64,000 nucleotides of DNA from Moniliella sp. 'wahieum' (GCA_003971905.1 RSEE01000008.1:186001-250000), one strand, 5' to 3'. Shown: positions 13,025 through 50,610, counted from the stretch's first letter. The notes: generated by a model not told the origin, from the sequence alone. Numbers and translations: made by a program.

Positions 13025-13634
13025 GCGCAGGGCGGCTCGGGTTGGTTGGCGATGTGGCTGTTTGGCGGCTATGGTTGTGTGTGTACTAGGGATTCCCCAT
13101 GGATCTCATGGCCCGTTTTGCTCGAACACAGAGGCAGGAGGTAGGGCGGGTAGCAGCTCAGACCGTAGCAGAGTGGGCAGTGATTATGAGTGGACCAGAG
13201 GCCTGCCTGGCCCAACCTACCCGTGGTTGTCGGCGTGATTGCAATGGGCAACAATTGAAATCGTAATCCCTGGTTCTGAATAGTGGAGGTTGAATTTTGA
13301 ATTGTGAACGCTGGATCCGAGTGCTGCTGGCACGTGCTCAGCTGCTGCAACTGTTCAATGTTCAATTGCAATGTTCAATGTTCAACTGACCCCCATTCCG
13401 CCCCGCAGCCCAAGCCAGCCTGGGCCGTCGCTGGCCTCCGGGCTGAGCCTGAGGCCTCACCGTCACCTGAGGCCCCCCGCGTCCGGCGCCCACGCTCGCC
13501 ATCACCACCCCCGCCTCGTCCCGCCTCCTTCCCCTTCCCACCTCCGCCTCCCCCCCCCCGGCGGTGATGCCCGTGAGCGACTCATCTGCCTCGACACCCC
13601 TACCAGTGCTAGCCAGTCCGACTGGCCCCCCGCC

Positions 13635-14620
13635 ATGCTGCCCACGCTCACACTCACTCCCGCCTTGTCGCATGAAGTTGGTGATCCGGTGGGCGACGAC
13701 CCGGACGAGTCCATGGGCAAATCCCACCACAAGCTCGACCACGACACGCTTACGGATGAAGATGATTTGTCCGGTGACGACCTATCCTTCCCCAACGACT
13801 CGATGCGCCTTGGCTACCTAGACTCCAACACTAGTTTCACACCACGTTTCTGCGTCCCGATCCGTATGCGTCCTCTGTGCCGCCGCATACGCCTGACTCG
13901 GCGTCCCAAGAGGAACCTACGGAAGACGAAGAGGCGGCCATTACAGCGACCCTTGCTCGTTGGTCCGAGCGAGATCGGCAGCGACGCAAGTCGGTGCGCC
14001 AACGACGGCCTGCCCCAACCTCCACTCAGCCTGCCGATACCGAAGCTGGCACGACCAACCCAGGACTGCTTCGTCGTCTATCTACGCTTCGTCGTCCCCG
14101 TGCCAGTGCAAAAGCCACCGTTTCATCCACCGCACCACCATCCTCGGGAAATGTACCATCGGTGAGCCAGGCACGTTCCACCACAGCGCTTGCGCCCGGC
14201 GCGCAGTCGCCAGGCTCACCTCCTGGCAACCCATCTCTGTCCGCTTCACCCGGCGCGGGGAGCGACGAGTCGGTTACGGTTGGGTCTGGTGATGCGGGAC
14301 CATCAAGAGGTGGATATGGTCTCACGTGCCAAGAAGGGTAAACGGCCTGAACCAGGTCTATCCAACCCGCGACCTACGGTCCAAAAACCTTTGGTCACAG
14401 CGGGCCCGGCACCCGTACGAAGCATGTCTCTCCACCCCCCGCCTCGGGAGTACGGGCGATGTGGACGGGCACGTGGGCGAGGTCGCGATCGTGATCGTGA
14501 TCGTGATCGTGATCGGCAGCGGTCTCATCCGTTATCTTCTTCGTCCTCTTCCCTTCTTCTTCTCCTTCTCCTTCTCCTTCTCCTTCTCCTTCGCCCCTCT
14601 CTTCAGGGTCGGCTAGCCCA
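13635..14620 (+). CDS. Hypothetical low-complexity protein (end uncertain)
   Basis: ATG after a pyrimidine-rich leader. Protein-like acidic/basic segments continue across frames (DTLTDEDDLSGDDLSFPNDS...EEPTEDEEAAITATLARWSERDRQRRKSVRQRR). No family recognised. Confidence 0.35.
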
Positions 14621-14921
14621 TCTCGTCCCCGGTCCCCTGCGTTTATGCATGGCAAACCTGATGAGCCAGTTAGGGATCGAGGGGTATGGCTCACCGACTT
14701 TCTCTGTTGCCTATCCAGTTCAACTACCGAAGAAGAAGCCCAGGCTGGACGGACCAACCCTCTCGAGTAAAGGGAGTGTCGAGCTCCTTCGTTCTTTCAG
14801 CGACGTCGCCCCGCCTTCCCTTCATCCCCTCTTTTCCCCCTCCGTCCTAAGCCTAAGGCCCATTCACTTCCTTCGGGCCTGGTCAGGAGGTTGCATGGGT
14901 GTCCCTGGATGTACTCTTTTC

Positions 14922-14968
14922 GTTTGGTTTGGTTTGGTTTGGTTTGGTTTGGTTTGGTTGGTTTGGTT
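14922..14968. repeat. (GGTTT)n pentamer microsatellite
   Basis: Direct reading: tttggtttggtttggtttgg... Confidence 0.9.
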
Positions 14969-15393
14969 TCATTTCGTTTCGTGCGTTTCCTTTTCCTGTT
15001 CTTTGTTTTTTGCTCGTCCTGGACACTGCGCACTTGTCGATGTTTCCCCCCCCCCCTTGCCCCTCTTGCCCACCTTGCCCCTCTTTCCCCTCTTGCCCTC
15101 CTTGCCCGCCTTGCCCCACTGTAGTACGCACATGGTTATACCCTCTCTATTGTTCCTACGCCAGTGGCCCCAGGGCCCACTCCAACCTATCTCACTCGTG
15201 AACCCTTTCTTGACTGCCATCACGCACCTCTGCCATGGGTCGATGAGTGCCACTGTTGCAGCCGTTGCTGCCAAACGAGATGGAAAAGGAAAGCAAGTAG
15301 GTGCGACGCGACGACAGAGGAGCGCCCCAGACGCCCTGATCAGCTCGATCAAGAGTTACTAGTTACATGTTACACTGACGATACAAAAAGGAA

Positions 15394-15481
15394 TTCCCCA
15401 ACCGGGAGTCGAACCCGGGTCTTCACGGATCAGACCGAGTGTCTTGAAAGCGTGACATCATAGCCGTTGGACCATTGAGGA
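15394..15481 (-). tRNA. tRNA-Glu(TTC) with an intron of about 16 nt at the canonical position
   Basis: Minus strand TCCTCAATGGTCCAACGGCTATGATGTCACG-CTTTCA-[AGACACTCGGTCTGAT]-CCGTGA-AGACCCGGGTTCGACTCCCGGTTGGGGAA, with a T-run downstream. Confidence 0.93.
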
Positions 15482-15728
15482 GTGATGTGCGGTTCTCGCA
15501 ACAGAAGCTCAACTGCATTCGCTCAACGAGTAGATTTGTAATTCCCATTCCGCCCGGGCCAAGTTTCAAAATTGGCATTACTAAGAGGCAGAAGGCGAGA
15601 CTGCGCTGGTGCCTTTATTGACCTTGGCTATCATCCTGACCACGTCTCGTTCCCGCTTAGTCCTGGTCCTACCAGCAAGAGCAAGCGCGTCCAGACCGCC
15701 TTCTTGGTCTCCACCGTCCTCCTCCATC

Positions 15729-16207
15729 ATGGCTCTGTCCCGCAGCATCTACAACGTGCTCTTTAAGCGCAACCCCGTCTTGTACGTCCTCTTCTCCGTG
15801 ATGGTTGGCTGGTTCCCTGCGGAGGCGCAGCTAACGCCGAAGTTCTGCACAGTGTGAGCGCTTGCTTCTTTGGCGGCTTTGCCTTCATGGTTGGCTTTGA
15901 CCAGGTCACTACGGCCTGGTGGGACAAGCACAACTACCCCGTACGTTACCGTTACTCTTTTCCCCTTGTGCTTCATGCTTCATGCTTCATTGTACCCTCC
16001 CGCCCACATCGGTCGACCCCGCGCGTTGGTACGAGCAGCGGGCCAATTGCCCTGCGGGCGCGGGGATGGGGGCCCCCTGACAGACACATTTGTTACCGAT
16101 TTGGGGGGACGAGATGACTGACCCAGTTTGTGTTCTTCTGTGTCCAGAAGCAGTGGAAGGACTTGCGTGGCAAGTACCTTACCAGTGCTCCCGAGGAGGA
16201 GGAGTAA
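15729..16207 (+). CDS. QCR9: Cytochrome b-c1 complex subunit 9, three exons
   Basis: Spliced product MALSRSIYNVLFKRNPV(L)|VSACFFGGFAFMVGFDQVTTAWWDKHNYP|KQWKDLRGKYLTSAPEEEE*, with the UCR_UQCRX_QCR9 signature (Y..LF.RN, KQWKD). Introns 15782-15852 and 15941-16147. Confidence 0.93.
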
Positions 16208-16932
16208 CTAGTAACTAGTAACTAGTAGTATCATCGGATGGTCTAGCCCCCGTCGTTCTCCATGGTAGACGGAAGAGCGACTGCTGCTCGTTCCTGCTAT
16301 GATCGTCACTGCCGAATCGCACGCGCCTCTTTGAATTCGACAGGTAGTCCGCTGTGAGGAGACGGAGAGAGACTGGTTCCAGGAGGCAAAGAGGAATAGC
16401 CTAATGGTGCATGCGTACGCCGCAGCGCGAGAGGAAGAGGTGCGGCAGCTATGTTGATTTCGAGGATCTTCCCTACTTGGCGTGAGAGCGGTGGCGGCCG
16501 GGTGGGAATTTGATGGCGTTGATGATCGATTGCGCTATGGTCAGTGGTATGGGAGTAGAGAGCCGTTTGGTTGATCCTGCCCACAGCCAGAGCAGGCAGG
16601 CCGTGTGTGGGGATGCGCGCGCGTAGGCTGAGCGCTGTCGCTTGTGTCATGGTGCCATGTGCCATGCAGGGGACGCAGGCAAGTGTGACATGTGACGTGG
16701 CCCTCATTAATCAGTCGAGCATCAGCGCTCAGCCTGATTAGCTTGCTTACTTGGCTGCCCGACGAGTGCGCTGCTGCCGCCCCGCCACAGCGGATGGGCT
16801 GTCAGTTGAAATGTTAGTCAAAACGCTAAGCGGCGAACCGAGCTAAACGCCGACCAACATCAGCCCTGATGCTCTCGCGCCCACCGGGAGCATCTCCAAT
16901 CGCATTCGCATTCGCATTCGCATTCGGAGTCT

Positions 16933-19900
16933 ATGCCCGACACGGCGCCTTCCACTGCGGCCTCCCTGCCCCGCCGCCCTCCCATCCGCGTAAGCGAGCT
17001 GCCGATGCCCACGATGACGACAGCCCAGAGTCCGCGTCGCCCTCTCCTGCCTCGGGTAAGCCGCCAGCCCCCCCCTGTCAAGGCCGCGTGTCTTTCTGTC
17101 GATCTCGGTCCGTGCTTCCTCTCCTGCCTCACATACCTGTCCCCGCGCCCAATTGACCCTCTTGACCCTCTTGACCCTCTTGGCCCGCTTGACCCGCTTG
17201 ACCCTGCTTAGGAAATCCAAGTGCGACGGACAGAGGCCATGCAAGACGTGCATTGCCAGGAAGCGCGAAAGATGAGTGTGTCTACACCGCCTCAAGACGT
17301 GGTGCAAAGCGTCGGATGATCGACCCCACCGAACTGCGTCAGCATCTGCAAGAGCTCTTGGGCCTGAGCTCGTTGCCGAATGACATTCGAGTGCCTGGCC
17401 TTGTGGCGCAACTGCAACCGTTTCAGCGGTCCGACTTGAGTTCCATGAGTTCCTACGAGCTCGCCTTGTTGCAGGAAGCCATTCAAGCTGAGCGTGTACG
17501 CCAGCAAAGCGCAAATATCATCGCGCCATCTGGGAGCAGCATCAAGGCGCCTTCGCTTCCTTCCTCTTCTTTGGTGTATTCGTCGGGACGAGGAGCAACT
17601 GCAACCCCATCCCAGCCACCTACTTCCCTTGCGTTCCAGCAGACACCTTTTGCCCCGCCCTCAGTGCCCAATGCGCTTCCACCCCCGACGCGGGAACTGC
17701 TGCCGACTGCTCCGACCTGCGTACTTTTGTAGCTGGTGCGTTGGAGAAGTTGAACGTGGAGGAGAGCGTCGCCATGCAGCAGCAGTTGGCTCTCAACACT
17801 CTTGACCCACTTGTTGCGGGACCGGGTGGAACGAGTGGATCGACACCTATTCCTGCTGGCACCGGTGGCCAAGACGCATTTCAATTTACCTTTCCATCCA
17901 CCTCGGTGAATTTCGTTCCGTCCCTGCCCGAGGGGGGGGCGTGCCTCCACAAGGACCCAACCAACCGGATTGGTTGGCTCCCTTGGCGGCTCAAGTGATT
18001 CAACAACAGAGTCAGAGGCGAGCGGGGTCCGTCTCGGCTTACGACCTTACTGCCACTCGACTGTGCAGTCCTGATCGTACTCGTGACCTGCTCACCTCGT
18101 TTTACCTTCATCTGTACTCGTTCCTGCCCGTCTTACTCCCTCCCCACCACCTGGAGACATATGTGGGATGGTATAGCTCTCACCGCTCACCGTTCCTCTT
18201 GGCCTTAGAGGCCGTGCTGCCGTTCCTGGAGGACAACGTGGAATTAGAACCATGCGAAGGACCTGACGCGTTCAACTCGTCCCCTCGCCAAGCGCGTCGT
18301 CAGTCTGCTGCCCGCTTTGCGCGCCAAGCTGGCGATGCGATCGACGAAGCTCTGGAGGCGATGGAAGAGCAGGCCGATTGGGACGTCTTGTTGGAAATTA
18401 TCCAAGCGTTGGTCATCTTGTCGATTTTCGAGTACGGTTCAGGCCGGGCCGTCAAAGCGCGGATCAAGGCGGACCAAGCACTGAGCTTGGCCATGTCTCA
18501 TGGTCTTCATCGTATGTCATCCTTGGCTGCGTTGAAGCGCTGGTAGCCCCCTCGATCTCAGCCGTCTCCTCGACCTCATCCCGTACCTTGTTGGCCAAGT
18601 TTTCCGCCCCGCTCCTGTTCGAGATGAGTAAGCGGATTTGGTGGACGGCCTGGACAGGGCTGTTTTATGCCTCGTTCAATACCGGCAAGCTCTTGACCAT
18701 CTCTGCGGATGATCCAAGGGTTACCTCTGCCTTGCCCTCGGGAACGGGCATGGCAGCGGAAAATGAGTGGGAAAAGCATGTTTCCACTCTTCGGTTTATG
18801 TTGTTGGTGCAAGAGCGTGTGTCGGCGTTGTGCAATCGCTTCGCCCGATGCGGAGCAGCCCACTCCCTCACCCGGTCTAACGTTTCACGACCCCCGGCGC
18901 CCAGTTCAGTTTTCTCACCTTCTTCCACGACGAGTGGGAGTCGTGAGCATCTGGCGGATAGTATGCGTTCGATCGACAAGGCGTTAGGGAGCAAATTGAA
19001 GAGCTGGAGAAACGCCGCTTCCATGGCACTTGCCCACCTTCCAAGGCCGGCCCAAGACCCTGCTCCAAGTCGAACCGAGCCTTTCGAGTTACATGAGGTT
19101 GATGAATTCGGGCCAGCTCTACACGGGCTGGTTGTGTCTCCATCTGTACTCGGCACTGCAAGGTGCTTCGATATTCGAACGCAAACTCTGTTTTCTCAAG
19201 TGCATCCCAGATGAGAAACCCAAACCTACGCCCCATCCCACTCCGTCCGTGTCCAGCCCCCCAGCTGATCGGTCCCCAGCCACAGCTGCTACCGTACCTG
19301 CTACCGTACCTGCTACCGTACCTGCTACTGTACTCGCCGTACCTACTCCCGCACCCGGCACGACGTCAATCACTTCCGTTCCGGTCCCTGGACTGGACGT
19401 GTTCAGTACAGTTTTTGCGCCGGACACGTTGGCTGCCGACTTGGAGCCGGCTGTAGGGCCAGTGGAAGCAGGTTGGGCTTGGGACGACCTGGACCAGCTC
19501 ACGGCCCAGCTCATACGGAGCTTCCGCAAGCTGCGTATACGGATTTGATGGGCGATTGGTTGTTGCGCATGACCGGCCTGACCGCCCCGAACGGGGTGGA
19601 CGGGGTGGACGGGAACGGGACGGGGTGGTAGAGCCCGTTTCAGGGGCGCAGGCCACACAGGCAACACAGGCAACACGGGCAACACGCTTACCATTAGCTG
19701 CCGAAGCCGAGCCGTCGCCAACATGGCTACCAGATGTGTTGGGCAAGCCGAGGGGGGAGCACCCGTTCGAAGCGCGCTACTCGCTGGAGCGGTGCGTGTA
19801 CGCGTCCAAGCGTCTTCTCGAGGTGCTAGGTCACGAGCAGCTGATGGTCAATCCGTACTTGGCATGTGAACATGTCTTGGCGGCGTTTACGTTGCTGGTA

Positions 19901-20201: not shown

Positions 20202-20397
20202 CCTTCCCGCCTTGGTTCGGCTTGGGCTTAGGCTTGGACTTGCGCTTGGACTTGGCTTTGCCCTCCACTCCTCGTACAGGGTGGATGGATATGGATCTAC
20301 AGGTACACATTGCATGCCTAACGGATTTAAAGGACGGAAAGGGGGCGCAGAAGCGGGTATCAGAGCATCCATTCGTAGCAGCTAGCAGAGCAGGGGG

Positions 20398-20483
20398 GGT
20401 GTCTGTGTGTGTGTGTGTGTGTGTGGGTGGTGTGTGTGTGTTGTGTGTGTGTGTGTGTGTGGTGTGTGTGTGTGTGTGTGTGC
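20398..20483. repeat. Imperfect (GT)n microsatellite
   Basis: Direct reading. Confidence 0.95.
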
Positions 20484-22168: not shown

Positions 22169-23303
22169 GATGGATGGTGGGGTCCAAGCCGCCTAGCCCG
22201 TAGTCACTTGTCGGCCTGAGATTCAGCTGGGCCTCAGTGCAGCTGTAGTTGGTATTGAGCGGAGCCTGCGCACGGGCCTGCTCGCTAGCTTTCCGATTTC
22301 AGAGAGATCTCTCAGATCCAGCGTGGAGCTTCACTTGAAGCTTCGAAGCAGGAATCCAGGTCACGTGTGTGACAGCTGATCACATGTGTGATGGGTGTGA
22401 TGTGCAATCCCATTGGTGGTGGCTGCACACGTGCGTACGTACACGTGTCACGTGCCCAGGGGACGAGACGGACGAGGCAGAGGGATCTGCGCATTCTGAC
22501 ACGGGCGGCGTGGCGGGCAGGGGACTGGGCTGGTGCGTGCCCCAGCACGTTGGCCCCTGACAGGCCGACAGGCGCGAGCCGAAAGAGGGCCTTGCTTGCC
22601 TGGGTGGCCCCCTGCGGGCGAGGTGCGCAAATCCCTCGCAGGCGCTACAGTGCCCCCCGGCTGGAGGGCGAATTCCGAGCTAGGCACACAGGCAGGGCGC
22701 CTGTGCGTGTGTGTTGGGTGCTCGCGGGGTGGTGGCATGGGGGCAGTCGACAGCCCATGTGGAATGGCGCTGGGCAGGGCAGCAGCCACGCCATGGGGGG
22801 GCACGAGGCCGCTGCTTCTGCGCCGTGCCTGAGCGCACAAGCCTCCCGCTTGCTGTTCCCGCTCGGCGCGCCCTGCCGCTGCCACACTCGCCCCACGCCT
22901 GCCCCAGCGCCAGCCGCACGCGCAGGACGTACGATCCACCGCACACGGCAGCCCGGCAGCACTCCCTCCAGCATGCAGCATTCAATGTTCAGGCTTCGCT
23001 CGCCGAGCCGCGAGGCAGCGCCAGGCAGCACCCCACCTGTCTTTCTGCCGCCCTCCCGCCCTCCCCCGCCCCGCAATCCCTCTCCGCCCCGCTTTGCCTG
23101 CGGACAACACCCCACGCTTCTCCTCTTCTAACCGCACCACCACCTCCTCCTCATCCTCCTCCATCCCCATTCCCATCCCCATTCCCATCCCCATCCCCCC
23201 CCACGCTCTTTACTTCCGTTGCCTTCTGCCTTCGGCCCACCTTCGTTACCGGTTACCCCCGCTCCACTCGGGCGTCCACCACCCCCCTGACCCTTGCCTC
23301 ACC

Positions 23304-24865: not shown

Positions 24866-27800
24866 CGGTCGGTCAAGCAGTGCTTTCCTTCCATTCCCAC
24901 CCTCCCACTCGCGTTTCCCACCAGGTATCCTATCCTACTCTGGCCCCTCCTTCCCTCTGTTATCTTGGTTCATATCCCTTCGTTTGTATACTCGCAAACT
25001 GTTCTTTCTATTTTTTTTCAGTCTGCGATATCGATATCTACCCCCGCTTTTTGCCACTCTCTTGATACTATCCCTCTTCGCCTCTACCCCCGTTGCGCAT
25101 TTCCTCCTGGCCTCGTCTCGAGGTGCGGGCATTGAATTGGTCGTAGGAATGGGTGGTCCATCCTATTCTGTATCTGTACACTTTTGACAGCGTGTTTGTG
25201 TTTGGCCTAAGTACTAGGATATACAGTAAGTAGTAGTAGTCCTTTTTTTCTGGTCCCTCAACGTTCAACATGCTTAACACTGCATGCTCAACATCCTTAA
25301 ACCTTAGCCCATGAGGATGCTGCATGTTGACCCGCATGTGGTTTGGCCCGTACGTTTCGCCAATCCAGTCCCTCGATCGGTCCCTCCTCATGCCTGAGAC
25401 CTAATACAAGCTCCCCCCGATACCATGCGCGGAGCCCGAACGGGAAAGCTCGATTAACCACAAAGTTGAGGGGATACTTGACTTTGTTACCTTTTGGAGG
25501 AGCAGAGTCCACTCACAGTTGATCGAGCGTAGAGGCTCTACTGGCGGATCTGAACGGAGGTAGAGACGATTGAAGCGAGGCCTCGCAATTGGGGCGTCGG
25601 CTCGAGGCGTGGCGGCAAGGGTGCGCATGCCCCGAAACGAGATGAGGACTATAGTAGCGTGCCAGTGTAGACTCACAACTTGCACGATTGGCCGGACAGT
25701 TGACGCAAGGCAAGACTGAGTAGGACAGACGCTGTCGTACCGACCAGCTCGACTCTTATAGGGTCGCTGCGGGATCCGTACAGAAGAGACTGAAAGTTGG
25801 AGACCGACAAGGGATGCCTGGAGGAATGACGGAATTGGGCAAGACCAATTGGTGCCAGTCGCTGAAATAGGTGAAGGACTGCCTTGCAATATTCCGTCCT
25901 GAGTGGAGGGCGGGAATATTCTCTAACCTCTGTAGCTCCTGTGCAACGCACCGTCAACGTGTCAATTGCCTGCTCTCTGGTCTTCTACACGTTAGTAGGC
26001 AGGGATAATCGAGATAATCGAAGATCGACAATCGATAAGGGAACCTCTTTTGGTCCGCGCGTCCAGCTTCCAGCATCCATCCCTTGTACTTGCGTCGCGC
26101 CTTGGGCGTTTACTAGTTTTACTACTTGTACACACGCCCCGACGGTCGATCTTCAAGCTTCAAGCTTCAAGCTTCATCGATCACCGGCATAACGGTGCAG
26201 AAATGCGCGAACGCAGGGTAGCTGAGGTGGTCCCTGACCACCTGATCGGCCGGCTGACTGGGGCCAGAAGGGGTCACTAGGTCACTAGGGTCGCTGTATT
26301 CTGGGTCACTGTGGGTCAGCGCTCAGCCTGAGCGCTCACCCGACCAAGCGGGTCAAGCAGGTCAGAAAAAGGGTCAGATTTCAGATCGATCAGATCGATG
26401 GTCACGGGTCAGGGCGTTGGCGCACGCCAGCAGACGCAAGGCAGACCCACTGGCCGACCTGGATAGCCTGGCGGTTGTGTTCGGATTTGATATTGCGTGC
26501 GGGTGTTGCATGTAGCAGGCAAGGTGTAAGAAGCAACGCTAGGAGCTAGTAGCTAGTAGCTAGTAGCTAGCAAGTAGCAAGTAGCAACTAGCAACTAGCA
26601 ACAGGGGTGTAACAGAGTGTAAAATGAAGACAGGTCAAATAGTAAGTACCCCACAAGTGCAGATCCCTCCAACGCAGGCATAGTTCCCATGTGACATGGC
26701 AGATGGACATGGGAACAGTGAATGTGATACGCCACGTCACGCATGCGGCTGGCTGTTCTTGGGCCAGACCTTGCACGCGCGCTAAGCGCACAACCGCCAG
26801 CGATCTTGAATCTGGCGCGAGTAGTGCGGATGCGCTCAGGGCGCTGCTGCGGGGATGCGCGCATGGGAGCGGCGGTGGCAACGGGAGGGGCAGTGGGGCC
26901 AGCACCAAGTGCCCAGCGCTGCTGTCAAGCCTACCGCTAACCCCCATCAAGCGCAGCGCTGGCCTGACTAGTGAGATCACTCGATCTAGGGACTAGGGAC
27001 TAGTGACTGTCACCGTCACCGCGTCACCTGCCACCGTCACCCGCACCGTCGTCCGCGTCAGTCTCCTGTCGCAAGCCTGTCGCAAGCCTGTCGCAAGTCC
27101 CGCCCCCACCGCAGCCGGCCAGAACCAACGGCAGGACACGCCTGCAAGCCACCCACGCGCCCAATGCACCCGGCGCACGATGTGCATCATAAGTACCAAC
27201 CCCTGCTCAAGCCAACTGGTCCTGTCCTCCCTATCCTCATTAATTCCTCATTCGTCCTCGAAACTGATCTCAGTCCTGACTAGTGACTAGTGACTCTCCT
27301 CCCTCCCCCCTGCGACCGGCAGCAGAGTTGAGAACGCACAGTTTGGCCCAGAACACACAGCGTTTGACTACCAGTGGACCTTGTGGGCCTTTGTCGTTCA
27401 ACACGTTCAACGTTCAACTGAACGTTGAGCGCGTTGAGCGGCTGAGGCTTCAGGCTCATCAGCGCTCGGCGCAGAACAACGGTGAATGTACTGAACGTAG
27501 ACGTGTTAGGCCTTAGGCCCTGCGGGCGTGAGGCGTGAGGCGTGAGGCCCCGAGGCAGGATCACCGGTCAGTGCCAGGGTGCACGCCCAGCAGCCGGTCC
27601 GCAATGCGACACACCGATCGCATCCAAGCGCTTGCGCCTGGGGCCTGGGGAAGCACATAGTGATCAGACATCCTCTGTAGTCACACCTCGATCATTGCAC
27701 CCTAATCGCAAGATCTCTTGTTGACTTCTTCCCACCACCTCTTTTGTGCGTTCTCGCTTGAGGCACACGGCTTCTGCAGCTTCTTCTGCCCCTGCTCCTG

Positions 27801-28341
27801 CCGCCCTTTTTGCCCGGATCCCACCTCATCCGCTTGGCCCACCCAAGAGGAAGAGAAAGGGCCAAGCAGCTGCATCATCAACATCATCCATCACCGTTCA
27901 TCTCCCGCTGCGTCTTCTCTCGCCAGACGGTCACTAGCACTAGTCACTTGACGAGTCACTAGTTCACTCGCCATCCTCTCATTAACATTTCCCCTCCACT
28001 CTCCCCGCACTACATCTGCTTTCCCCTTGTCCCCGCTGCTGCGCCACACGCGGGTTGAACGTGTGGCTGGCCCTCGACGCGCGCATCTCCGCTTCTCTCC
28101 CGTTGTTGCCAACCAAGCCCCCTCCCTTGTCAACCACCGGAACACACATTTGGCACTTGATTCCCGCGGGTCTGCGTGTCACTCGTCACTAGTCACTAGT
28201 CACTCAAGCCCAACCATCCTTCTCGCTTCCTGACTGCTGCGACGACGGGCTTCTGTCTTCTTCCTGCTTTGCTCTCTTCGATATCCCTATCCCGTCCACT
28301 TACTCTTAATGTTGACGTCCGCGAGCACCACAGTCGACGAG

Positions 28342-31945: not shown

Positions 31946-32470
31946 ATTGCTTTACTTGACTCGTAGCTTCCCTTGCCCTTTGTGTCATTGGATTCCCCTT
32001 GGCCGGTTGCCCTTCCTCTTGTCTGCCTCAACGTTCGTTCCGATCTTTTCTGACGTGTACCATCCTCCTCCTGTGCCTATACATGGCTTCAGGCGTGCCG
32101 ATCCGTGTCCCATCGAAACATGTCCCACGGCGCTCTGGTACAGCCTTGACTACTATCCGCAAATGCCCACCCTCGTTACTCCCTCTCTCCCTACCACCAA
32201 CTCACTTATCAGTGACTCCCTTCCTCATCTTTCATTCCCCTGCACAGATTCGCTGTTGAACTTGCTTTCTCTACCCACGCTTAGTACCCCCCCCCCCCCC
32301 CCTGCCCTCCTACCGGGTTTGCTGTCTCGCGTTTGCTTTGCCAATTCAAGCATACGCAGTGTATGACACTTTGATTCCCCCATTGTTGGACGAATGTAGA
32401 ACCGTAATACCGTAATGCCGTCGTGCCATCGTGCACCTTGTAGCGTTCCACCTCGTCGCGGTGCACTCCC

Positions 32471-39481: not shown

Positions 39482-40354
39482 CCTCTGCCGGCAAATGAAC
39501 ATGGATTTCGAGGGCACATGTGTTCTCACAGCATAGACGGCCAATGAGGCGTAAGCGGAGGAGCACTGAAGCACATGACAAAGAGAGCGGCATAACTGAA
39601 CGTCAAAGGCCCAAGTAACCATAGTAGTTTGGCTGCTCACTTTAGTATGAGACCCACCGAAGAGGGAAAAAATGGGCGAAAGGTGTAAGAACGCCAGCGG
39701 GTACGGGGCGGCGCACAGAAGAGAGGTGGCAGCTTGGCCACCACCGCCACCGCCACCTCTCTCTCCGTTACGCGTTGTCCTTCTTCAATGTGGTGCACGA
39801 TGTCATCACCGGCGACGATACGAGTCGGCCTTTCTTCCCCATCTCGTTTCCTCCGGTCAAGCTCACCCCACCATTATCTGGTGCACCCTTCTCGCAACTG
39901 CGCCTCCTAAGAGTACCCAGTTGGGCACTCGGCACTTGGTTGATCTTCGTCAAGTTGTTGACGCCCTACACTAGGCTTTTGTTTCGCCCTCCTGTGTTAG
40001 CATGGTTGGACAACTAACGCTAGCGATGCCGAGTTGAACTGCCAGAGTAGCCTACGCCTGCGCTCTCCCCTGCGTGTTCTGATCAACGTTCAGTAAGCTC
40101 AGTCGGACGCCGAACACGCTAGTACAGGCCCGCCCCCCCCTTTTGCACCTGTGCCGCAACCCGTCCACAGGCCACGTTGACTGATTTGATAGAGTTGAAG
40201 CTGCGCTGAAGGCGAAGGCAGCGCATGTCAGTGGTAACTCCTACGCCAGTACTACAACAGGATACAAGAATAAGAATGTGTTTGGTATGAGGTGCAATTC
40301 ATAAGAATCAACCAGCCCCTGGTAGGAGCAAGGCGAAAAGGAAAGATTGGGGAA

Positions 40355-40543
40355 GTGAGCGCCAGCGACCAGTGTGTAAGGGAGGCGGCACTCGTGGCGA
40401 CCTCGTGTGCAAGCACAAGCGATGGAAGCCGAAGACGCAAAGAGTGGAATGACAAGTACAGCTGGGCAGTGCCCAGCGTAACAGTTGTCAAACTGTTAAG
40501 AACAGATACTACACTTGATCTAAGCCAGAAGGCCAGAAGAGTT
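40355..40543 (-). ncRNA. U2: U2 spliceosomal snRNA
   Basis: Minus strand ACTCTTCTGGCCTTCTGGCTTAGATCAAGTGTAGTATCTGTTCTT gives stem I and the branch-recognition GTAGTA. Stem IIa AACAG..CTGTT, stem IIb GCTGGGCA/TGCCCAGC, IIc pairing TGACAA/TTGTCA. Length about 190 nt, with TATTTAA about 40 nt upstream. Confidence 0.95.
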
Positions 40544-41243
40544 GGGGGAAAACAGCAGAGATGCCCCCCGAGGACGCTCTTAAATAGACCACGAGCCATT
40601 CAACCCTACCCTGGTTGGAACGAATATCCAATTATCAACACTCGCAGGGAGTCAGTGTGCTGGACCGGTTTATTGCGGAAGGGGTTACTTCACTGGCGCT
40701 GTGCCTGCATCTCTGCGGTCGAGCCTCCACTTCCTGTTTGGTGCATTCCGCTTTGGCTGTTCCGCTGTGCACTAGCTGGTGCGGAACGCGCATGGCAGGT
40801 GCGCGGAACAGGCTCAGGCTCAGACACAAGCCCATGCCCACGTACCGACGCATGCCCCTTTTAGTAAAACAGAGAGGTCGTTCCCAAGTTCTGACCTAAT
40901 AGCACGTGTAGCCCAGCCACTCGCCTCAGCACCATACATGGCAGCACCACACATTAAATCCACCTTACCCTACTACCTTCCCCCTGCTTTGGGACGGTTC
41001 CCCCACGCTTTGGCGCCACATGTATTGCGCCGCCTCCCCCAGCAATTCTGCACAGTCATCGCCCAGCCAGTCCAGGCCAGTCCTGCTCTCCACCGCACCA
41101 TCACCCCCCCCCTTCCCCCTAATGGCCTTGCCCTGCTGCGCAATGAATTTCATGCCGCACAGCAGCGTCGCGTTCACCTTCTCTGTCTTTCCTTCTCTTT
41201 CCACGCCTCTTCCCCTGCTATGTCATATGTCAACAGAACGGTT

Positions 41244-41339
41244 CGTCAACAGGACACTCCGTCAACAGGACACTCCGTCAACAGGACACTCCGTCAACAG
41301 GACACTCCGTCAACAGGACACTCCGTCAACAGGACACTA
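41244..41339 (+). repeat. Tandem array of six 16-bp units CGTCAACAGGACACTC
   Basis: Five perfect units plus one ending in A; no variable spacers. Confidence 0.95.
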
Positions 41340-42959: not shown

Positions 42960-44422
42960 CGGACGGGAGGAGCGGGATGGTTGGTTGGGTTGGTTCGGCA
43001 GTGCCGCTCGCCAGGGGGGACGTCGACGCGTTATATATGCGCGGGGGCACGTGAAGCGCTGGTTAGCCAATGTATTGCCGAGTAGGCCCGTGCCATGGTG
43101 CGTCGCACTGAGGGAGCCACTGGCGCTCACGTTTGGTTAGCCACTGTACTGCCGAGCTGTCAGTCAATTTACTGCCAAGCTGGTCTTCCCTCTGATGCCG
43201 GCAGGTAGCCTGCCCTCTGGTTTCTCCCCCAGAGAGACGCCTGTACGCTTGTGCTCACACGCGGTTAATCATTCTATTGCCGAGCCTGCCTGCCCCTCGA
43301 ACACTGCCGCAACGCCCCGCCAGTGTTCGGGCGTAGATAGACATAGCCTGCCTACTAGGCCCTTGGCTGGGCCCCGATTGGCCTGTGCGCGCCTTTTGAC
43401 TGTGCCACACCCCCCCCCCCCCTTCACCTCATGCCCCTCTGCGATTGCATCGTGTCTCCTCACCACCGCCCCTCTCATTACGCCCCGTAGAAACTGGTAT
43501 CCCCTCTCTGCAGCCAGCACATCGCGGAGTGCTCATCTGTGCCACGGCGCAACAACACCATCTTCTTCCCCTGTCCACACCAACATCACCATCGTTGTTG
43601 CCTGCACGCCTGCTGCCCGTTGTTGGTCCGTCCCCTATCGCTCCGTCGTCCTCGCCTGGTCCGCATTGCTGCCGTACGTCTCCATTCCCTCTCCCGCCAC
43701 ACTCCGTCCTCCTCGCCTCGTCTGTATCGCTGTTGGACGCCCCCTGCCCCTCGTCCCGTCCCCTCTCACTGTTTACATTGCTTCTGTCTTACGTGTTCTC
43801 TTGCCCTCCAGTGCTCTGTTGCTGACCCGCCTACACAGACTCCCCCTCGCGGGCCATCTTGTCATCGTTTCATCTGGTCCGCAGCGCCAGTCATCGTACG
43901 TGCCCGCTTCATCCGCATTCCCCTCGCTGCTGCTGACCCACCTGACCTTGTGGGTCGCATGCATGATGCGCATGCCCCGTTTCGTTCGCCTTCGACCCAC
44001 CCTTGTCCGTCTGCTCACTTTGGCTGTCTCGCTTACATAGTTTGCCTCGCCTCTGTGGTCCTCTCACTTGGCTGGTCTGCCTTGCCATCGTACGTCCCCC
44101 GTACTTCGCGCTTGGAGTTGCCCTGCCCCTGCCACTGTCTACCCAGCTGCTGCATGCACAGAATTCCACGGTTGGTTCGTCTCGCCTTATTCGCCTCGAC
44201 TCATCTGACCTTTGTTTCGCCGTCGTATGTCCCTTCTGTTATATGCCGACACTGTTCCTGACCTTGTTCGCCCTACCAGTGTACATTCCGACTTCATCCC
44301 GCTTGCCCTCGCTACTGGCTGACTTGATCGCCTGACCCGTGAGTCCGTCGCACATCTTCTGTGTCTCGCGCTAACCCTGTGCTGCTGCTGATTTGGCCAG
44401 ATTCTCCCTAGTGCGCGTCTCC

Positions 44423-45202
44423 TCACACTAACCTGTCATCTGCTGTGTAGCTCACTGCTTTACTACGTTGGTGCTTCCGTCCTACGTCGCGCCTACCCGT
44501 GGTTGCCGTGTAATCGCAAAGGATTATGGCCTTCATCTCTTTCTCATGTCTCATGGACCACACCCCTTTCGGAACGCACAGCTCTCGACCTCTTTTTTTT
44601 ATATATAGTCCTCCGGAATCCCGTAGGAGTGATCTTTTCCTCAATCCCGTATCACTCGAAAGATAATCATTCTGTGGTTCCATTACAACACAGTATAGTG
44701 CATACGCCATTGGCGTTCTGAAGCCAGAAGAGAAGAGGGCGCGCAGATTAGGCATGGCGAGAAAAGGCGAGTAGCTAACCCCCAAAAGCCTTAAAACACG
44801 TACTGAATATTGAATATATGGGAAAAGGGACAGAAAACAGAGAACGAGGATGGATCCAGCATAGGGCTGCGTATATAATACAGATCGTACGAGCGAAACA
44901 CTGTCGCCTGTGAGAGCGATCAAGTGCGGGAGCGTGAACGGGAACAAAATCGCATCGTACACCCCCTTTCTGGTAACATCACTAAAATACGCCCGTTGTG
45001 CAACAGACATTTTGCCATTCTCCACAACAGGCATCTCGATTTGGGGCGTTGGGTGTGATCCGGGGAATAGCAAACGGTGTTCTTGGCGAAATAGTTGGGT
45101 CCTCGATCTGTTGTTCCAAGATCGGAAGGGGGTGGCCGCTGCGCATATTATGGGTATCATATAGATGGATGCAGAGAGGGCGAGAAGAAAGGGTTCGCAC
45201 AC
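44423..45202 (-). CDS. Orphan ORF in a lower-GC block; hypothetical
   Basis: 259-codon open frame in DNA visibly more AT-rich than its neighbours. Hydrophobic N-terminus. No recognisable motif, and the start is not a clear ATG. Confidence 0.25.
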   Translation of the reverse strand: MCEPFLLALSASIYMIPIICAAATPFRSWNNRSRTQLFRQEHRLLFPGSHPTPQIEMPVVENGKMSVAQRAYFSDVTRKGVYDAILFPFTLPHLIALTGDSVSLVRSVLYTQPYAGSILVLCFLSLFPYIQYSVRVLRLLGVSYSPFLAMPNLRALFSSGFRTPMAYALYCVVMEPQNDYLSSDTGLRKRSLLRDSGGLYIKKRGRELCVPKGVWSMRHEKEMKAIILCDYTATTGRRDVGRKHQRSKAVSYTADDRLV

Positions 45203-47032
45203 TGCAGGAGATCATTCAAGATCGATAGTCTATTGTGAAGTGATTCGAGAGAGGTTTTGATCTTCGTCAGTTGCGCTCGTGGTCTCTGCCCCCGTTGCCG
45301 CCGTAGGTTGTCGTGCTGTGTATGCGGCTATACACAGAGATCTGTGGGTATATCGGGATTAATTACACGTCAAGTATAGTATACCCGTCTCGTGTGATCG
45401 ATTCAGCAGCCTTCTCAGGGAACGATATCGCGATATGATATGTTGGTGGTAAGGTCATTCATGCCTCAAGCCGAGGAACGGTTGCACTTGGTGCAACCAA
45501 TACATCAGGTATTTGTTGACTCGATCCATCTCCTGTGCCATATAGGATCGGGACTGCGTGAAGAGAACGGGTTTGCTGAAACGCGTGTGCGAAATTGAAG
45601 AAACGGCTCTTCACTTGGTGGGCGCTGCACTTCAGGCTTCAGGAGCGCAGCATTTTCAGCGGGCTATCCAATTTCCAAGGCCATCCATTGGGAGACCTTT
45701 TCTGCGCATTCCATATATGATGCTCAGCCCATTGGCGTGATCAACCTTTACCACCGCTGTAGGGTACCATACAATACCAGCTTTACTTTTACTGGACTGT
45801 GTATATGTTGCTGGTTATCGATTTGAACCAGATTTGCGGGTAGCTGTGTTCGTCCTTAAGGACCTTTTAAGGGATTGAGCGTTACGCGCGCGCTACGCGT
45901 TAAGCCTCTAAGCGCTAAGCGCTCCGAGTATATATGCCGTTACATCAGAGTACGTACCTCTCGGGGGGATATATGTTGGACACTTCCGAGGCCCGTATGA
46001 CGTGTGGGGGATTCGTGTGGCATGTGGTGGGGAAATACCCAGGTACATGTAGTATTCCTACTGGCGGGTGGCTCAGGCTGAGCGCAACGCACATCGCGAG
46101 AAGCGCTGAAGCGCTGAAGCGCCGAACGTATGATCGAGATCTGAGATCTCAATGAGATCTCAGTCTGAGAGCCGAGAAGATCGGAACGGACGTGTCACGT
46201 GTAGCACCTGCCGCAGACGCGTGAACATTGAACGTTGAACTCAACGTTGAACGTTCAACAGTGAGTATGTTGAAGTTGTGGCGCTGAGGCGCTGAGGCGC
46301 TGAGTGTAACCGGTACCCGATAACCGCCTGAGATCATCGATCATCGATCAGAATACTGAGTCGAATAAATATGTATGCAAGCTAGAACCAAAGCCGATCC
46401 CGACGGGACCAGTGCAACACCTCTGCAAGTGCACGGGGTACTTTTGAAGCGGACCCCATTAAGCATGATGCATTACCGGATTATCGACTACCGGTTACTC
46501 CTTAGCTGTGTTGATGCAGTTGATGTCTCATCTCTATATATACAGCGTTTGGGTGTCCCATTAAATGCCCCACCTCTGGGGTTGATCGATTTCAACCCAA
46601 GTATAAACGCAAAAATGGAGAGAGGATTATTAGGCAAAAAGGATGGTAGACGTGAGAGAAGGTTGATGGATTGATGGATTGATGGACTGATCAGTGAGAA
46701 GCAGCGGACGAGGGAGAAAAGAACAAGGAAAAGCTCAAGACCTGGGGGGCTGTAGGCGGTAGGCGTAATAGTGGAGTGAGAGGTATTAACGTTTAACGTG
46801 GCCCTCTTCCATGGCAAGAACAAAATTGTGGAAGCGTAATGTAACGTTGGCAGCAACAGTAGTCGAGAGGCAAATCAGAATTAAGATGTCGGGTGGAGGA
46901 ATGCACAGAGCTCCACACGCGTGTTTCGGTAGAAAAGACGGATGCCGGTGCTTGTTTAAAATGGCAGCATGTGTAATGGAATCGTGATCTCATCCCCATG
47001 GTCCAGACAGAGGCTGAGACAACCACCATCCA

Positions 47033-48345
47033 TCATCTTAGAAGTATGTGTTTGGAACAAAGAGAAAATCGGCAAGCATCATGTCGTCGTCCCAGCAACC
47101 AAAGAAATTTGACGTTGTGGAAAAAGGGAAGAAAGAAGGGAGGATTAGGATCAGTTAAAGGGGGCGACGGGTGCGTCGACTTCTTTATCGTTACTTGTAC
47201 CGGGAGGCACAGAGAAGAAATGAGGAGCGGGTCCATGTTGTGGGAACCAAGACGATGAGGAGAAAGTACCTCGTCATGAGGTAAAGCAGTGGCCATATTG
47301 GTCAATGGACTGACAAACACGGATGAAAGCGTACTGGCTGCCGTCCTCGAAGACAATGAGGAGGGGGAGTACTCCAATTCAGGCTCAGGTTTGGGAACGA
47401 TTCGTTGGGAAAAGTCAACAGGGTAGGATGGTTGATGGTCGAATCCCTCGCCCCAAATCTCTGGTGTCAAGGTCTGTCCCTCTGGAACTGACATCGGATT
47501 GCATCCACGCTTTTTCTCCACGCCATTGTTGCTCATGAGCCGAAGAGATGGGTCCCAGAACGATTGGCTTCGACCTCTGCGAATCGAGGCAAACGGTTCA
47601 TCATCAGCTCCCACCATTTTCTCCGTCCCGGCCGAGCCTAACGTAGCAGCGTCCGGGCCAAAAGAAGACGGCAGATCTTGGGAGGTGGGAAGGGGAATCG
47701 TCGAGCGCACATCAACAGGACTCTTGAGCGAAGGTGCCGAAACAATCCTACGAAGCAAATTGTTCTCTTGTTGCAAGCGGCCAACGAGAGAAGATAACGA
47801 CTGGTTCTGTGTCACCATCTCACTTTCTTTGATTTGAAGCGAGTCAACAAGAGTCTGGAGCTGGATAATCAGAAGCGAGGTAGGGTCAGTATCTTGTGGT
47901 TTATGATTAACTGGGGTTTACTGACCTCATTCAGGCGACTCTCCTTGCGTCGGCGAAGAGCACGTTGAGCATTACGGTTCTGTTCACGCCGGCGAGCCAT
48001 GCGTGCTTCGCGTGGGAGATGGGTAGAAGAGTATGGACGACCGGTGGCCTTGCTCACTTTTCCGGGCCTGGCCTTTGCCGACTGAGAGGAGGTGGAAGTG
48101 TCAGAGGGGCTTGCTGAGAGACGGGTATGGGTTTGTGCTTCTTGCTCCCAAGGTAGTGCCGTGAGGCTTGGCACGTCCGAAGGCATCGTTGTTGGCAGCA
48201 AGACATCGAGTGGTCCGTAGTTGCCGGGAAATGTTGATCGTGGGTCGTACGTGTTGGAGAGGAGAGGGAATACGGTGTTTTCCATGGCTTGTGTACCAGG
48301 TGCAGGTGTAGGCGTGCACACAGGGGGAGGAGCGTCGTTACTCAT
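47033..48345 (-). CDS. bZIP transcription factor (AP-1/Yap-like basic region)
   Basis: ARRREQNRNAQRALRRRKESRLNE, then an intron (about 47863-47925), then LQTLVDSLQIKESEMVTQNQSLSSLVGRLQQENNLLR leucine zipper. The 3' end is uncertain. Confidence 0.88.
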
Positions 48346-49589
48346 GGGGGCAGCTCGACAAAAAGAGGGGATAAAAGAGGTGGAGGAGAGCTAAAAGGCT
48401 GAGACGGAAGAGATGACGGACAATAGAGCGATGGAGGCAAGAGGCTGCGAGAAGAAAAGGCAGAAGCACGGGATACTGATGCGGCGAGGAAGGATGTTTT
48501 GAGAAGCAGGGTGTGGTGGTGCGGTCAGAGGGCAAATGGTGGGTGACGCAGTGCATGCTGGTGCTGAGGTTGGGCCCTGTTTAATTGGCAGTCGTTTATC
48601 GACAAAACACGCCGAGGATGCAATGATGGCCTTCAAGCTTCATGCACTTCATCATGCACGCCCAACTTAATTCTCAAAAGTGTACATACCAACAAAACCA
48701 CCGAGATCTTGCCGGAGCCGAACGCCCCCAAAACTCTGTTATACTATACCAGGCGAGTATTCACTTGTATAGCGTCTCTGGCTTCGTCTGTGCCACAACC
48801 TCTATTACCCACACGGAGTTGAGGAGATCTCAGGATCTCGGGTCTCACCAGAACACAAGGGCTTGTTGCCCCTGAGACTCCGAGGCTCTTGAACACAAAA
48901 AGCTCTTCAAAAGTCATCGAGCTAGCTTTCCCCGGACAGGGAGAGTTCCGATGGGGCCACAACGTACATTTCAAAATGCAAAATATGGCACCCTCTCCCC
49001 CGATCAGACCGATCAGCGTGCTTGGCTTTGGGGAGCAGTGCCACGTACACGTCCATGATATGGCTGGGGTACTAGAGATGTCTGCCACATGTCAGGAGTG
49101 ATTTGCCGTGCGCACGCCCACATCCAACACACAGGCTTTGTCGATGGTGCGCCCAGGCTGAGCGCTGAGCCGCTGAGCCAGTGCTGAGCTTCCGTACTTC
49201 GGCGCAGCGTCACGCGTCACGCTTCAAGCCATGTCCAATGTCCAACCCCATCGGTATCAGAACCCCCGAAACACCGACCGCATCGGGGGCCTGCAGCATT
49301 GGCACCCGGCGGCACCTACGCAGTGCGATTGTCACATGTCACCAGCACCACCTGGTGACCGGTGACTGGTCTGCGCTACTGCTCGGCCCAGCGCCCAGCT
49401 ACGCCCGCAGGGTCCCGTGTGGGATACGGACCCTCGCAACCTTAATCACCAGCGATCGGGGATTTTCGATGCCGTCCAGGTCTGCGCTTCGTAGGTCAGA
49501 TTCAGAGGGCAAGCAAGGTTGGTTCAGCTTAGCCGCCAGGCGCCCTGTACGCCAGCGCTCCCATGTCCATGACCCTGCCCATTCCCATG

Positions 49590-50093
49590 CCCATTCCCAT
49601 GCCCCCGCACTTGATTAATGATTTGGTCCCCGCACGGTGGTTTGGGCTGCGTTCGGACGCAGCCACCGGAGGCCTGGTGGGGGCGGACGGCCATATCATG
49701 CGTCAGGTGGATGCGCAGACGGACGCACATCCGACCGTTCAAATCTGGACATTGTTATGGCAAGCCACCAGCCACCACAGAGCCCCCACCGACCGCAACG
49801 TCCAACCACTCCACCAGGTGCATCCTAACAGTAGTGTACTCCGCTTGCACCAACCCTATCGCTACTCCTCCCCCTGCGCGCATGCAAGCAGCCTCCGCTC
49901 TCCCTTGGTCCAATTCATCCCAGCCAGCACCCGGCCGGCCAGCGCGGCCAGCGATGACGACAGCGACGCAACGGATAAATACCAAGCTGCGTACCGGGCC
50001 ATGATTGCCATCTTCAACAAGCTTGCTGAGGAAGGCCAACAGCTGGGGTCCAGGGCATCGGGTCTACGTCTTGGGACTGGGAAGAATGCTTAG
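49590..50093 (+). mobile_element. Possible Mutator/FAR1-type transposase C-terminal remnant
   Basis: YRYSSPCAHA resembles the end of a SWIM finger (PCxH). DKYQAAYRAMIAIFNKLAEEG resembles the helix after SWIM in FAR1-like proteins. The N-terminal CxC is not intact. Confidence 0.3.
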
Positions 50094-50610
50094 CGTATGT
50101 TGCGCTCCTCAGTGCAGAGATAACGTGGCAGTTAGTACGTCTCGGGTCTATTCGACTTGAACGCATATGCGCCCGAACGAAGTTCACTTGGCGTATCCAC
50201 TACAGACTGAGATAGTAAGATCCAAAAGAAATGCACTGTCCTCTCCGCCCACCAAATGCGCCCAAGAAAAAGATACCGGTACGGGACATGGGGAGCATCC
50301 TGCGTCCTGCGTCCTGCGTCATGTGGGAAAGCCGAGTGCGACTACCTGTCTCCACCCAAGAGGATCTGCGGAAGCGGCAGAAGGGTTATAGGTGAATCGT
50401 GATGCATCTTGTAAATGGTACTAAGACGAGCACAGATCATCGATCATCGATCATCGATCGTTTTGACGATCTCGATCACCTTCATCATGATCAGCGAGCG
50501 CTCAGCCTGAGCCCGCACGGTCCCCCCGGTTGCCCTGCAGGATGCTCTCCATCCACCGAGGGGCCATGTACCAGGCACTGGTGTGACATGTGATGACGCG
50601 AAGGCCGTTC

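Follow-up and report, generated by a model that had tools for sequence, protein, structure and literature searches.

A T-N-A duplication signature around palindromic tetramers in non-coding DNA of Moniliella sp. 'wahieum': possible scars of excised transposons

A stretch of 64,000 nucleotides from Moniliella sp. 'wahieum' (GCA_003971905.1 RSEE01000008.1:186001-250000), referred to below as the window, was analyzed for a class of short period-7 repeats that occur throughout its non-coding DNA. The window represents nuclear DNA from a basidiomycete, and all window statistics given here refer to its full 64 kb, with fungal control loci as comparison. We found that the repeats follow a single rule, in which a T-N-A trinucleotide (TNA) is followed by a 4-bp palindrome (pal4) and then by an identical TNA. 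Units of this type with the same N in both copies occurred 46 times, at 37 loci, whereas 1.7 were expected from simulation, and the tandem heptamer arrays of the window are an extended form of these units. The reading that we favor, to which we assign a probability of roughly 0.38, is that the loci are scars of excised terminal inverted repeat (TIR) transposons that duplicate TNA.

An earlier note on this stretch, made from the sequence alone, had described a code with a 7-bp period, in which a fixed TGA/TCA triplet (or TAA/TAG) is separated by interchangeable, mostly palindromic 4-bp spacers. All 14 of the 14 groups of triplet positions and spacers that it quoted were correct. When the window was compared with 100 block-wise order-2 Markov simulations, 51 units of TCA-N4-TCA (12.1 expected) and 30 of TGA-N4-TGA (11.8 expected) were counted, such that the claimed excess of TCA/TGA at a spacing (k) of 4 over other triplets and spacings holds under composition control. 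Across spacings of 0-12, counts of TCA/TGA pairs were flat except at k=4 and at k=3, 6, and 9, which reflect coding periodicity. Three triplets in phase at k=4 were also more frequent than expected (TCA, 10 vs. 0.19; TGA, 5 vs. 0.23; TAG, 10 vs. 0.02). The description of the spacers as mostly palindromic was borne out for TNA-N4-TNA, where 46 of 94 spacers were palindromic against a 4-mer background of 5.9%. Among XYZ-N4-XYZ units with other flanks the corresponding figures were 3/56 (ANT), 8/109 (CNG), and 10/162 (GNC), and between TNA flanks at other spacings they were 4/26 at k=2, 1/55 at k=6, and 0/28 at k=8. The second-ranked outer pair, TNG, gave 14 same-N units with a palindromic 4-bp spacer vs. 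5.6 expected.

When all direct repeats of 2-4 nt around palindromic spacers of 2-6 nt were scanned without bias, TCA/TGA with a 4-bp spacer ranked first (37 vs. 1.36 expected, z=35) and TAA/TTA with the same spacing second (9 vs. 0.24); most of the remaining signals were rotations of these two sets of heptamers. The TAA variants of the proposed code are part of this signal. TAG is not a rule-following flank and recurs because CTAG is the commonest spacer. The signal is restricted to T..A triplets, a spacing of 4, and palindromic spacers. Eleven of the 16 palindromic 4-mers were used, namely CTAG (10 pairs), CATG, ACGT, and TCGA (6 each), CCGG, AGCT, and GCGC (4 each), TTAA and CGCG (2 each), and GGCC and ATAT (1 each); GTAC, AATT, TGCA, GATC, and TATA never served as spacer among the 46 pairs. 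A general richness in palindromes was considered as the cause and ruled out by counts made outside the arrays. There, palindromic hexamers did not exceed expectation (A..T class, 172 vs. 191), and single odd palindromes of 5-9 nt centered on TNA were not enriched outside the loci. Short inverted repeats exceeded expectation at spacer 1 only (37 vs. 19.9), and this excess stems from the arrays themselves.

The middle base of the triplet is copied. Among 55 occurrences of T-N1-A pal4 T-N2-A, N2 was the same as N1 in 46, complementary in eight, and otherwise different in one, where expectation for each class is ~1.6-1.7 (same, 1.7; complementary, 1.6; other, 1.6). Because N is identical in both TNA copies, the loci point to a duplication event rather than to a symmetric site; a symmetric protein site, a hairpin, or quasi-palindrome correction would yield a complementary or unconstrained N, and all three are therefore disfavored. 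Perfect 10-bp palindromes with complementary N form a minority class, and the complementary-N cases mostly adjoin same-N loci, with which they build larger composites (8060, 26329, 46142-46153, and 46241-46248). No C/T or G/A mixed pair was present among the 55, which indicates that the TAA/TTA versions were born as such and speaks against the suggestion that they are products of TCA>TTA transitions. The idea that the arrays are half-sites for a protein that reads them at 7-bp spacing finds no support either, since N varies (C, G, A, T) and is nevertheless copied, and since 11 different palindromes serve as spacers. Three-frame stop cassettes, also proposed in the earlier note, are a by-product at most: at least three in-phase triplets are found at only 7 of the 37 loci, and in the TCA and TTA forms the only stop is that of the opposite strand.

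Perfect tandem arrays with two or more copies were in excess at all periods of 6 and above, and period 7 stood out among the non-multiples of three with 46 arrays vs. 5.0 expected; at period 8 there were 18 vs. 1.5. TCA/TGA was the most enriched triplet in the period-7 units (22 of the 46 arrays vs. 7.8 expected, p=1.4e-6), followed by CTA/TAG (10 vs. 3.8). A TNA that adjoins a palindromic 4-mer equals a 6-bp A-NNNN-T palindrome plus one base. Units consisting of a hexamer palindrome plus one base made up 17 of the 46 period-7 arrays (null 9.9%, p=9e-7), and those with an A..T palindrome made up 15 (null 2.2%, p=4e-14), represented by ACTAGT (three arrays), ATCGAT, AACGTT, and AGCGCT (two each), and AAGCTT, ACCGGT, AGGCCT, AATATT, AGATCT, and ACGCGT. 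Palindrome-plus-one units were not enriched at periods 5, 9, or 11, nor were full or plus-two palindrome units at periods 6, 8, or 10. A C..G member of the palindrome-plus-one class, CACGTG T CACGTG, which is an E-box-type hexamer palindrome plus one base, is present at 22442-22454 and 46190-46202.

The length of the period-7 match run was determined at 39 loci and was 3 in seven, 4 in one, 5 in ten, 6 in seven, and at least 7 in 14. Two full head-to-tail copies (a run of at least 7) are thus present at 14 of the 39 loci, and the other 25, with runs of only 3-6, are bare 10-12-mers, which suggests that tandem duplication of 7 bp was not the primary event. The short loci come in two discrete forms, the bare TNA-pal4-TNA and TNAxy-y'x'-TNAxy, which is longer by exactly two bases at one side. 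In addition, a single chain can keep its triplet constant while passing through unlike successive palindromes, such as AGCT three times, TCGA, and CCGG at 26153, or CTAG and CATG at 15356. With N read as a pyrimidine, the base that follows an unextended chain end was G in 10 of 15 cases vs. a background of 26%. TNA direct repeats were also found around segments of 8-40 nt whose ends form inverted repeats of 4 nt or more (20 vs. 2.5 expected), and all non-TNA triplet classes were at expectation in this count; the longer TNA-flanked segments mostly start and end in the palindromic 4-mer itself. When folded as single-stranded DNA, six pure A..T arrays gave only -1.4 to -3.7 kcal/mol, and values of -8 to -10 kcal/mol were reached only by mixed composites of direct and inverted units. 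The proposed footprint of a hairpin-primed expansion or DNA-modification process is supported broadly, as a copying event, while its hairpin-primed part has weak support at best in light of these weak hairpins and of the minority status of complementary-N palindromes. Variant spreading of the kind typical of slippage was observed at 26538-26602 (GCTAGTA to GCAAGTA to GCAACTA).

Coding DNA was measured as cover by open reading frames (ORFs), because a self-trained codon-usage map failed to split coding from non-coding DNA. Only 5 of the 37 loci lie within ORFs of at least 200 codons, which take up 67% of the window and 58% of its TNA sites. The remaining loci cluster in ORF-poor stretches at 13.3, 15.3-16.7, 25.2-28.2, 45.9-46.8, 48.6-50.6, and 59.9-60.3 kb, and the locus density in ORF-poor DNA is ~1.5 per kb. 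Loci are found upstream of genes (8053, FKBP ORF; 28179, kinase ORF) and at 3′ ends (16203, 25258, 40083). Two longer sequence families recur in the same DNA. The near-palindromic 15-mer GCGCTCAGCCTGAGC had nine matches with up to two mismatches on both strands vs. 0.45 expected, always intergenic, and could represent either a promoter element or a very small dispersed repeat. The 12-mer TSACATGTSACA had 11 matches with up to one mismatch vs. 1.25 expected and often lies ~50-150 bp from GCGCTCAGCCTGAGC, with both families sharing intergenic regions. The four x'TCAx pentamers (TTCAA, ATCAT, GTCAC, and CTCAG) were all within the top 11 over-represented pentamers of intergenic-like DNA.

The control set consisted of 80 loci around CCR4 genes on metagenome contigs (783,436 bases; best identity 51%, with no close relative among them). 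In these 783 kb, same-N TNA-pal4-TNA was found 53 times vs. 37.2 expected, or 4.3 per 64 kb. The distribution of N over the same, complementary, and other classes was 53/37/65 in the controls, compared with 46/8/1 in the window. Period-7 arrays numbered 69 in the controls (5.6 per 64 kb, vs. 46 in the window), and the A..T palindrome plus one base accounted for four of them, vs. 15 in the window. For tandem repeats of 7, 8, and 9 bp, the counts per 64 kb were 46, 18, and 18 in the window and 5.6, 3.7, and 2.4 in the controls, a ratio of 5-8, compared with only ~1.6-1.7 for periods 5 and 6. The signature belongs to the present genome or lineage and not to fungi generally. The lineage-wide system that the earlier note considered possible did not appear in these 80 loci.

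As a working model, a duplication-type event at a T-N-A trinucleotide would copy TNA as a target-site duplication (TSD) and leave a small insertion scar, and the four palindromic bases between the TNA copies would be derived from both ends of something with inverted termini. The most parsimonious source would be the excision of cut-and-paste TIR transposons similar to PIF/Harbinger or Tc4, with each excision leaving both TSD copies together with two terminal bases from either inverted end. Retention of two bases from each inverted end would automatically make the interior a 4-bp palindrome and the unit 3+4=7. Longer remnants, that is, inverted-repeat segments of 9-19 nt between TNA copies, may represent less complete deletions of the same kind. 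From two units on, new hits on regenerated TNA sites, or replication slippage, could produce heptamer arrays of 2-4 copies, and scars would survive only where a 7-bp insertion is harmless, namely in non-coding DNA. The direct T-N-A duplication expected of transposon scars is seen in the same-N pairs, and the self-complementary interior in the palindromic half of the TNA-N4-TNA spacers; the latter is consistent with inverted ends and is no proof of their origin. Our inference is that the scars go back to a transposon and not to some other staggered-break process, and that slippage was the source of the arrays.

Several observations weigh against transposon excision. Within the window, a search for a parent element with a perfect 9-nt TIR flanked by TNA gave one match, which is background level, and TNA-flanked 14-nt TIRs with up to three mismatches gave six, compared with 3-28 for other triplet classes. 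Dispersed repeats resembling transposable elements were not found in the 64 kb, and Pfam detected no transposase domain in 12 ORFs and then in 144 of the 179 ORFs of at least 130 codons. The 11 spacer types would require many element families with differing terminal dinucleotides, and as footprints the loci would be very dense in ORF-poor DNA. The bimodal run lengths imply that many loci are 5-nt repeats with a 2-nt gap, which a simple 3+2+2+3 model does not predict, and the G after chain ends is not accounted for by the model either. For some of the longer TNA-flanked segments, an interrupted array may be the better description than a longer end remnant. Finally, the longer conserved context of the GCGCTCAGCCTGAGC and TSACATGTSACA forms suggests selection on at least a subset of loci.

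Other sources were considered and set aside. A 5-bp TSD with two P-nucleotides, tried for the 5-nt repeat class, would require that the palindromic addition invariably arise on one and the same side of TNAxy, an asymmetric target. hAT elements (8 bp, nTnnnnAn), Tc1/mariner TA footprints, topoisomerase II 4-bp duplications, and quasi-palindrome correction would each give a different geometry or a complementary N. A bolder proposal, which we regard as rather unlikely, is a very precise insertion process of this fungal lineage, of which we found no description and which would target T-N-A, duplicate TNA, and set a perfect 4-bp palindrome between the copies, thereby yielding thousands of promoter-proximal 7-bp cassettes. 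As such cassettes would regenerate their own target, they would build up heptamer arrays, and some of them (the GCGCTCAGCCTGAGC and TSACATGTSACA forms) would have been co-opted for regulation. Behind the process would stand a nuclease or transposase, either new or domesticated, and no catalogued element.

The same anatomy, with its copied N, 3+4+3 geometry, and TNA specificity, could also have been written by break-and-repair without a transposon. Here, a lineage-specific nuclease, possibly a domesticated transposase, would cut TNA with a 3-nt stagger, and fill-in of both overhangs plus a short self-complementary filler added by end joining would produce the 7-bp cassettes directly. This route fits the absence of an element, TIR, and transposase from the window, and both the choice of 11 among 16 palindromic 4-mers and the very high local density are easier to reconcile with it. 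It is nevertheless unlikely in our estimation: the opening of hairpins would yield P-nucleotides that copy TNA itself, and such copies are not seen; a candidate enzyme did not emerge from the 64 kb examined; and we know of no repair route that puts an arbitrary perfect 4-bp palindrome between filled-in ends. A cis-regulatory grammar, in which binding sites or arrays for abundant promoter factors were multiplied by duplication and kept by selection, would explain why loci concentrate in ORF-poor intergenic stretches beside gene starts, why the GCGCTCAGCCTGAGC and TSACATGTSACA families co-occur and have a longer conserved context, and why all four x'TCAx pentamers rank so high in intergenic-like DNA. 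We consider this doubtful, because a protein cannot demand the same N in both copies yet allow any N (46 same, 9 different), nor can it take 11 unrelated palindromic spacers, and some loci lie at gene 3′ ends (16205, 25258, 40083). The protein-readable consensus of a transcription-factor site cluster was not found; only T and A are fixed, and a subset has longer context.

Replication slippage, with self-complementary units favored by the folding of slipped strands into hairpins, would account for the higher frequency of 7-9 bp tandem repeats in the window than in the control loci, and the variant spreading at 26538-26602 is classic for such a process. As an origin for the loci, slippage appears improbable. 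Most loci hold fewer than two copies, palindromes are enriched at period 7 only and not at 5, 6, 8, 9, or 11, and slippage gives no reason for T..A flanks. Furthermore, the hairpins of the pure arrays are weak, palindromic hexamers and short inverted repeats are no commoner than expected once the arrays are set aside, and a single chain can hold unlike successive palindromic spacers. An assembly or base-calling artefact was considered because several long genes show ORFs in shifting frames, where introns or indel errors are possible. It is very improbable as a source of the loci: the pattern is sequence-specific (TNA only, perfect palindromes, and 11 spacer types) and restricted to ORF-poor DNA, and we know of no error mode of this shape.

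Among known systems, PIF/Harbinger elements and nematode Tc4 offer a close geometry for transposon excision. TNA is called the classic TSD of Harbinger (PMC12477816), and in one assay the Harbinger-type miniature inverted-repeat transposable element mJing left a single TSD together with two internal nucleotides (PMC6850418). Tc4 targets the interrupted palindrome CTNAG and duplicates TNA (bioRxiv 10.1101/2023.11.06.565293), and CTNAG resembles the x'TNAx context of the window loci. The likeness lies in a direct 3-bp T-N-A duplication and in the self-complementary interior expected of two inverted ends. By contrast, neither an element nor a TIR nor a transposase was found in the window, which shows 11 spacer types, extreme density, arrays of up to four units, and many 2-nt extensions; Harbinger excision is usually described as precise. 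Footprints of Tc1/mariner elements are described as terminal transposon bases left by staggered excision cuts and end joining (PMC8151067), and they share with the window loci the order of TSD, a few terminal bases, and TSD. They differ in having a TA duplication and a 3-nt interior (e.g., CAG between two TA for Sleeping Beauty), whereas the window loci have a TNA duplication and a 4-nt palindrome. Nearly precise excision of bacterial Tn10 leaves a palindrome of IS10 ends, a 50-bp remnant, between 9-bp duplications. The window loci are similar to these remnants in their succession of TSD, palindromic remnant of inverted ends, and TSD, and the 17-nt cases at 26223 and 26316 bear the resemblance.

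Short tandem repeats with hairpin-forming units resemble the heptamer arrays of the window in being head-to-tail and in having self-complementary units. In the window, by contrast, it is the 10-12-mer and not an array that forms the primary unit, and its T..A and period-7 specificity has no counterpart among those repeats. Bacterial intergenic heptamers, reportedly including TAACTGA in Beggiatoaceae and others in cyanobacteria and Xanthomonas, are likewise intergenic, of period 7, and composed of stop-codon-like words. Unlike the window loci, these prokaryotic repeats use a single fixed word in each genome, form long arrays, and are not known to follow a palindromic-spacer rule. Full-text literature searches, supplementary files aside, brought up no description of a TNA-palindrome rule in fungi. 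Footprints and TSDs are of known kinds; new would be a variant in which the signature is the dominant source of seemingly unrelated heptamer microsatellites within a single lineage.

The window also contains a CCR4-type ORF (2107-4420, + strand) with ~45-53% identity to homologs in Malassezia, Ustilago, Puccinia, and others, and 75-82% to those in other assemblies. A Pfam scan of ORFs identified further genes for a protein kinase, a secretory lipase, and WD40 and TPR proteins. A U2 small nuclear RNA (snRNA) gene lies at 40350-40543 (- strand, 124 bits), and two transfer RNA (tRNA) genes at 15394-15481 (- strand) and 7859-7927 (+ strand); the former probably contains an intron, as Rfam finds the tRNA and ARAGORN does not. 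Period-7 loci are located ~20-270 bp from the U2 snRNA gene and from each tRNA gene. About ten copies of GGTCA/GGGTCA occur at irregular spacing within 150 bp at 26270-26420, suggesting either a homotypic cluster of the motif or a minisatellite that has degenerated. Other simple sequences include a (GT)n tract of ~43 units (20399-20482), a run of 16 C (32287-32302), and a minisatellite at 41229-41338 with 6.9 copies of the 16-bp unit GTCAACAGGACACTCC at 95% identity. A local duplication (4760-5060 / 5385-5970) consists of blocks ~84-97% identical, with large indels separating the copies; the alignment of this duplication (4760-5970) showed no TNA-flanked insertion.

Table 1. Period-7 loci and TNA-flanked units of the window, followed by the sites of two recurrent motifs. 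Positions are counted from the first nucleotide of the window; entries are unstranded.
Position	Feature	Remarks
6614..6623	TCA CGCG TCA	
8053..8069	TCA CCGG TCA CCGG then TGA (N flipped)	directly upstream of FKBP ORF
13352..13385	TCA ATGT arrays	spacer one mismatch off palindrome
15356..15372	TTA CTAG TTA CATG TTA	two palindromes; ~20 bp from tRNA 15394-15481
15969..15990	(TGCTTCA)3.1 = TCA + TGCT (one mismatch)	follows GTACGT in small-protein gene
16203..16227	(AGTAACT)3.6 = TAA CTAG repeated	first TAA = stop of small + strand gene ending ...PEEEE
16686..16695	TGA CATG TGA	
16704..16713	TCA TTAA TCA	
16722..16731	TCA GCGC TCA	within recurrent 15-mer GCGCTCAGCCTGAGC
23246..23255	TTA CCGG TTA	
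25258..25267	TCA ACGT TCA	just past lipase ORF
26153..26183	TCA AGCT TCA AGCT TCA AGCT TCA TCGA TCA then CCGG	three palindromes
26223..26245	TGA + 17-nt inverted-repeat segment (7-nt arms) + TGA	
26316..26338	TCA GCGC TCA; also TCA + 17-nt perfect palindrome (8-nt arms) + TCA	
26965..26974	TGA CTAG TGA	
27277..27295	(TGACTAG)2.7	
27403..27428	TCA ACGT TCA + TGA ACGT TGA, inverted order	composite palindrome, -8.0 kcal/mol
27506..27519	TTA GGCC TTA GGCC	
27525..27548	(GGCGTGA)3.4 = TGA + GGCG (one mismatch)	
27561..27570	TCA CCGG TCA	
28179..28204	TCA CTCG TCA CTAG TCA CTAG TCA	~100 bp upstream of kinase ORF
40083..40092	TCA ACGT TCA	3′ end of gene
44804..44817	TGA ATAT TGA ATAT	
45908..45923	TAA GCGC TAA GCGC	
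46222..46259	TGA ACAT TGA ACGT TGA .. TCA ACGT TGA ACGT TCA	direct + inverted units, -10.0 kcal/mol
46332..46350	(GATCATC)2.7 = TCA TCGA repeated	
46786..46799	TTA ACGT TTA ACGT	
48633..48642	TCA AGCT TCA	
49157..49170	TGA GCGC TGA (GCTGAGC x2)	
49207..49222	TCA CGCG TCA	
49332..49341	TCA CATG TCA	
49356..49365	TGA CCGG TGA	
49612..49621	TGA TTAA TGA	
50435..50459	(GATCATC)3.6 = TCA TCGA repeated	
50584..50593	TGA CATG TGA	
59973..59982	TCA CATG TCA	
60074..60083	TGA TCGA TGA	
60159..60168	TGA CATG TGA	
60271..60280	TTA CTAG TTA	
61810..61819	TCA CTAG TCA	
16621-16739, 26319-26335, 46071-46085, 49149-49165, 50498-50514	15-mer GCGCTCAGCCTGAGC sites	
16684, 26685, 41221, 49083, 49330, 50582, 59971, 60157	12-mer TSACATGTSACA sites	

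The ~27-fold excess of one exact micro-architecture constitutes a clean, countable mutational signature that is confined to one of 81 fungal samples, and the count of TNA-pal4-TNA is easily run on any genome. If transposon excision is the true source, the loci would be an extensive record, not visible by other means, of transposons entering and leaving gene-dense DNA, and they would show footprints seeding microsatellite-like arrays in promoters. If the genome holds no matching element, the signature would be something new, and an unknown nuclease with its repair route would mean new enzymology. Either way, the seemingly unrelated heptamer microsatellites of this lineage share one origin.

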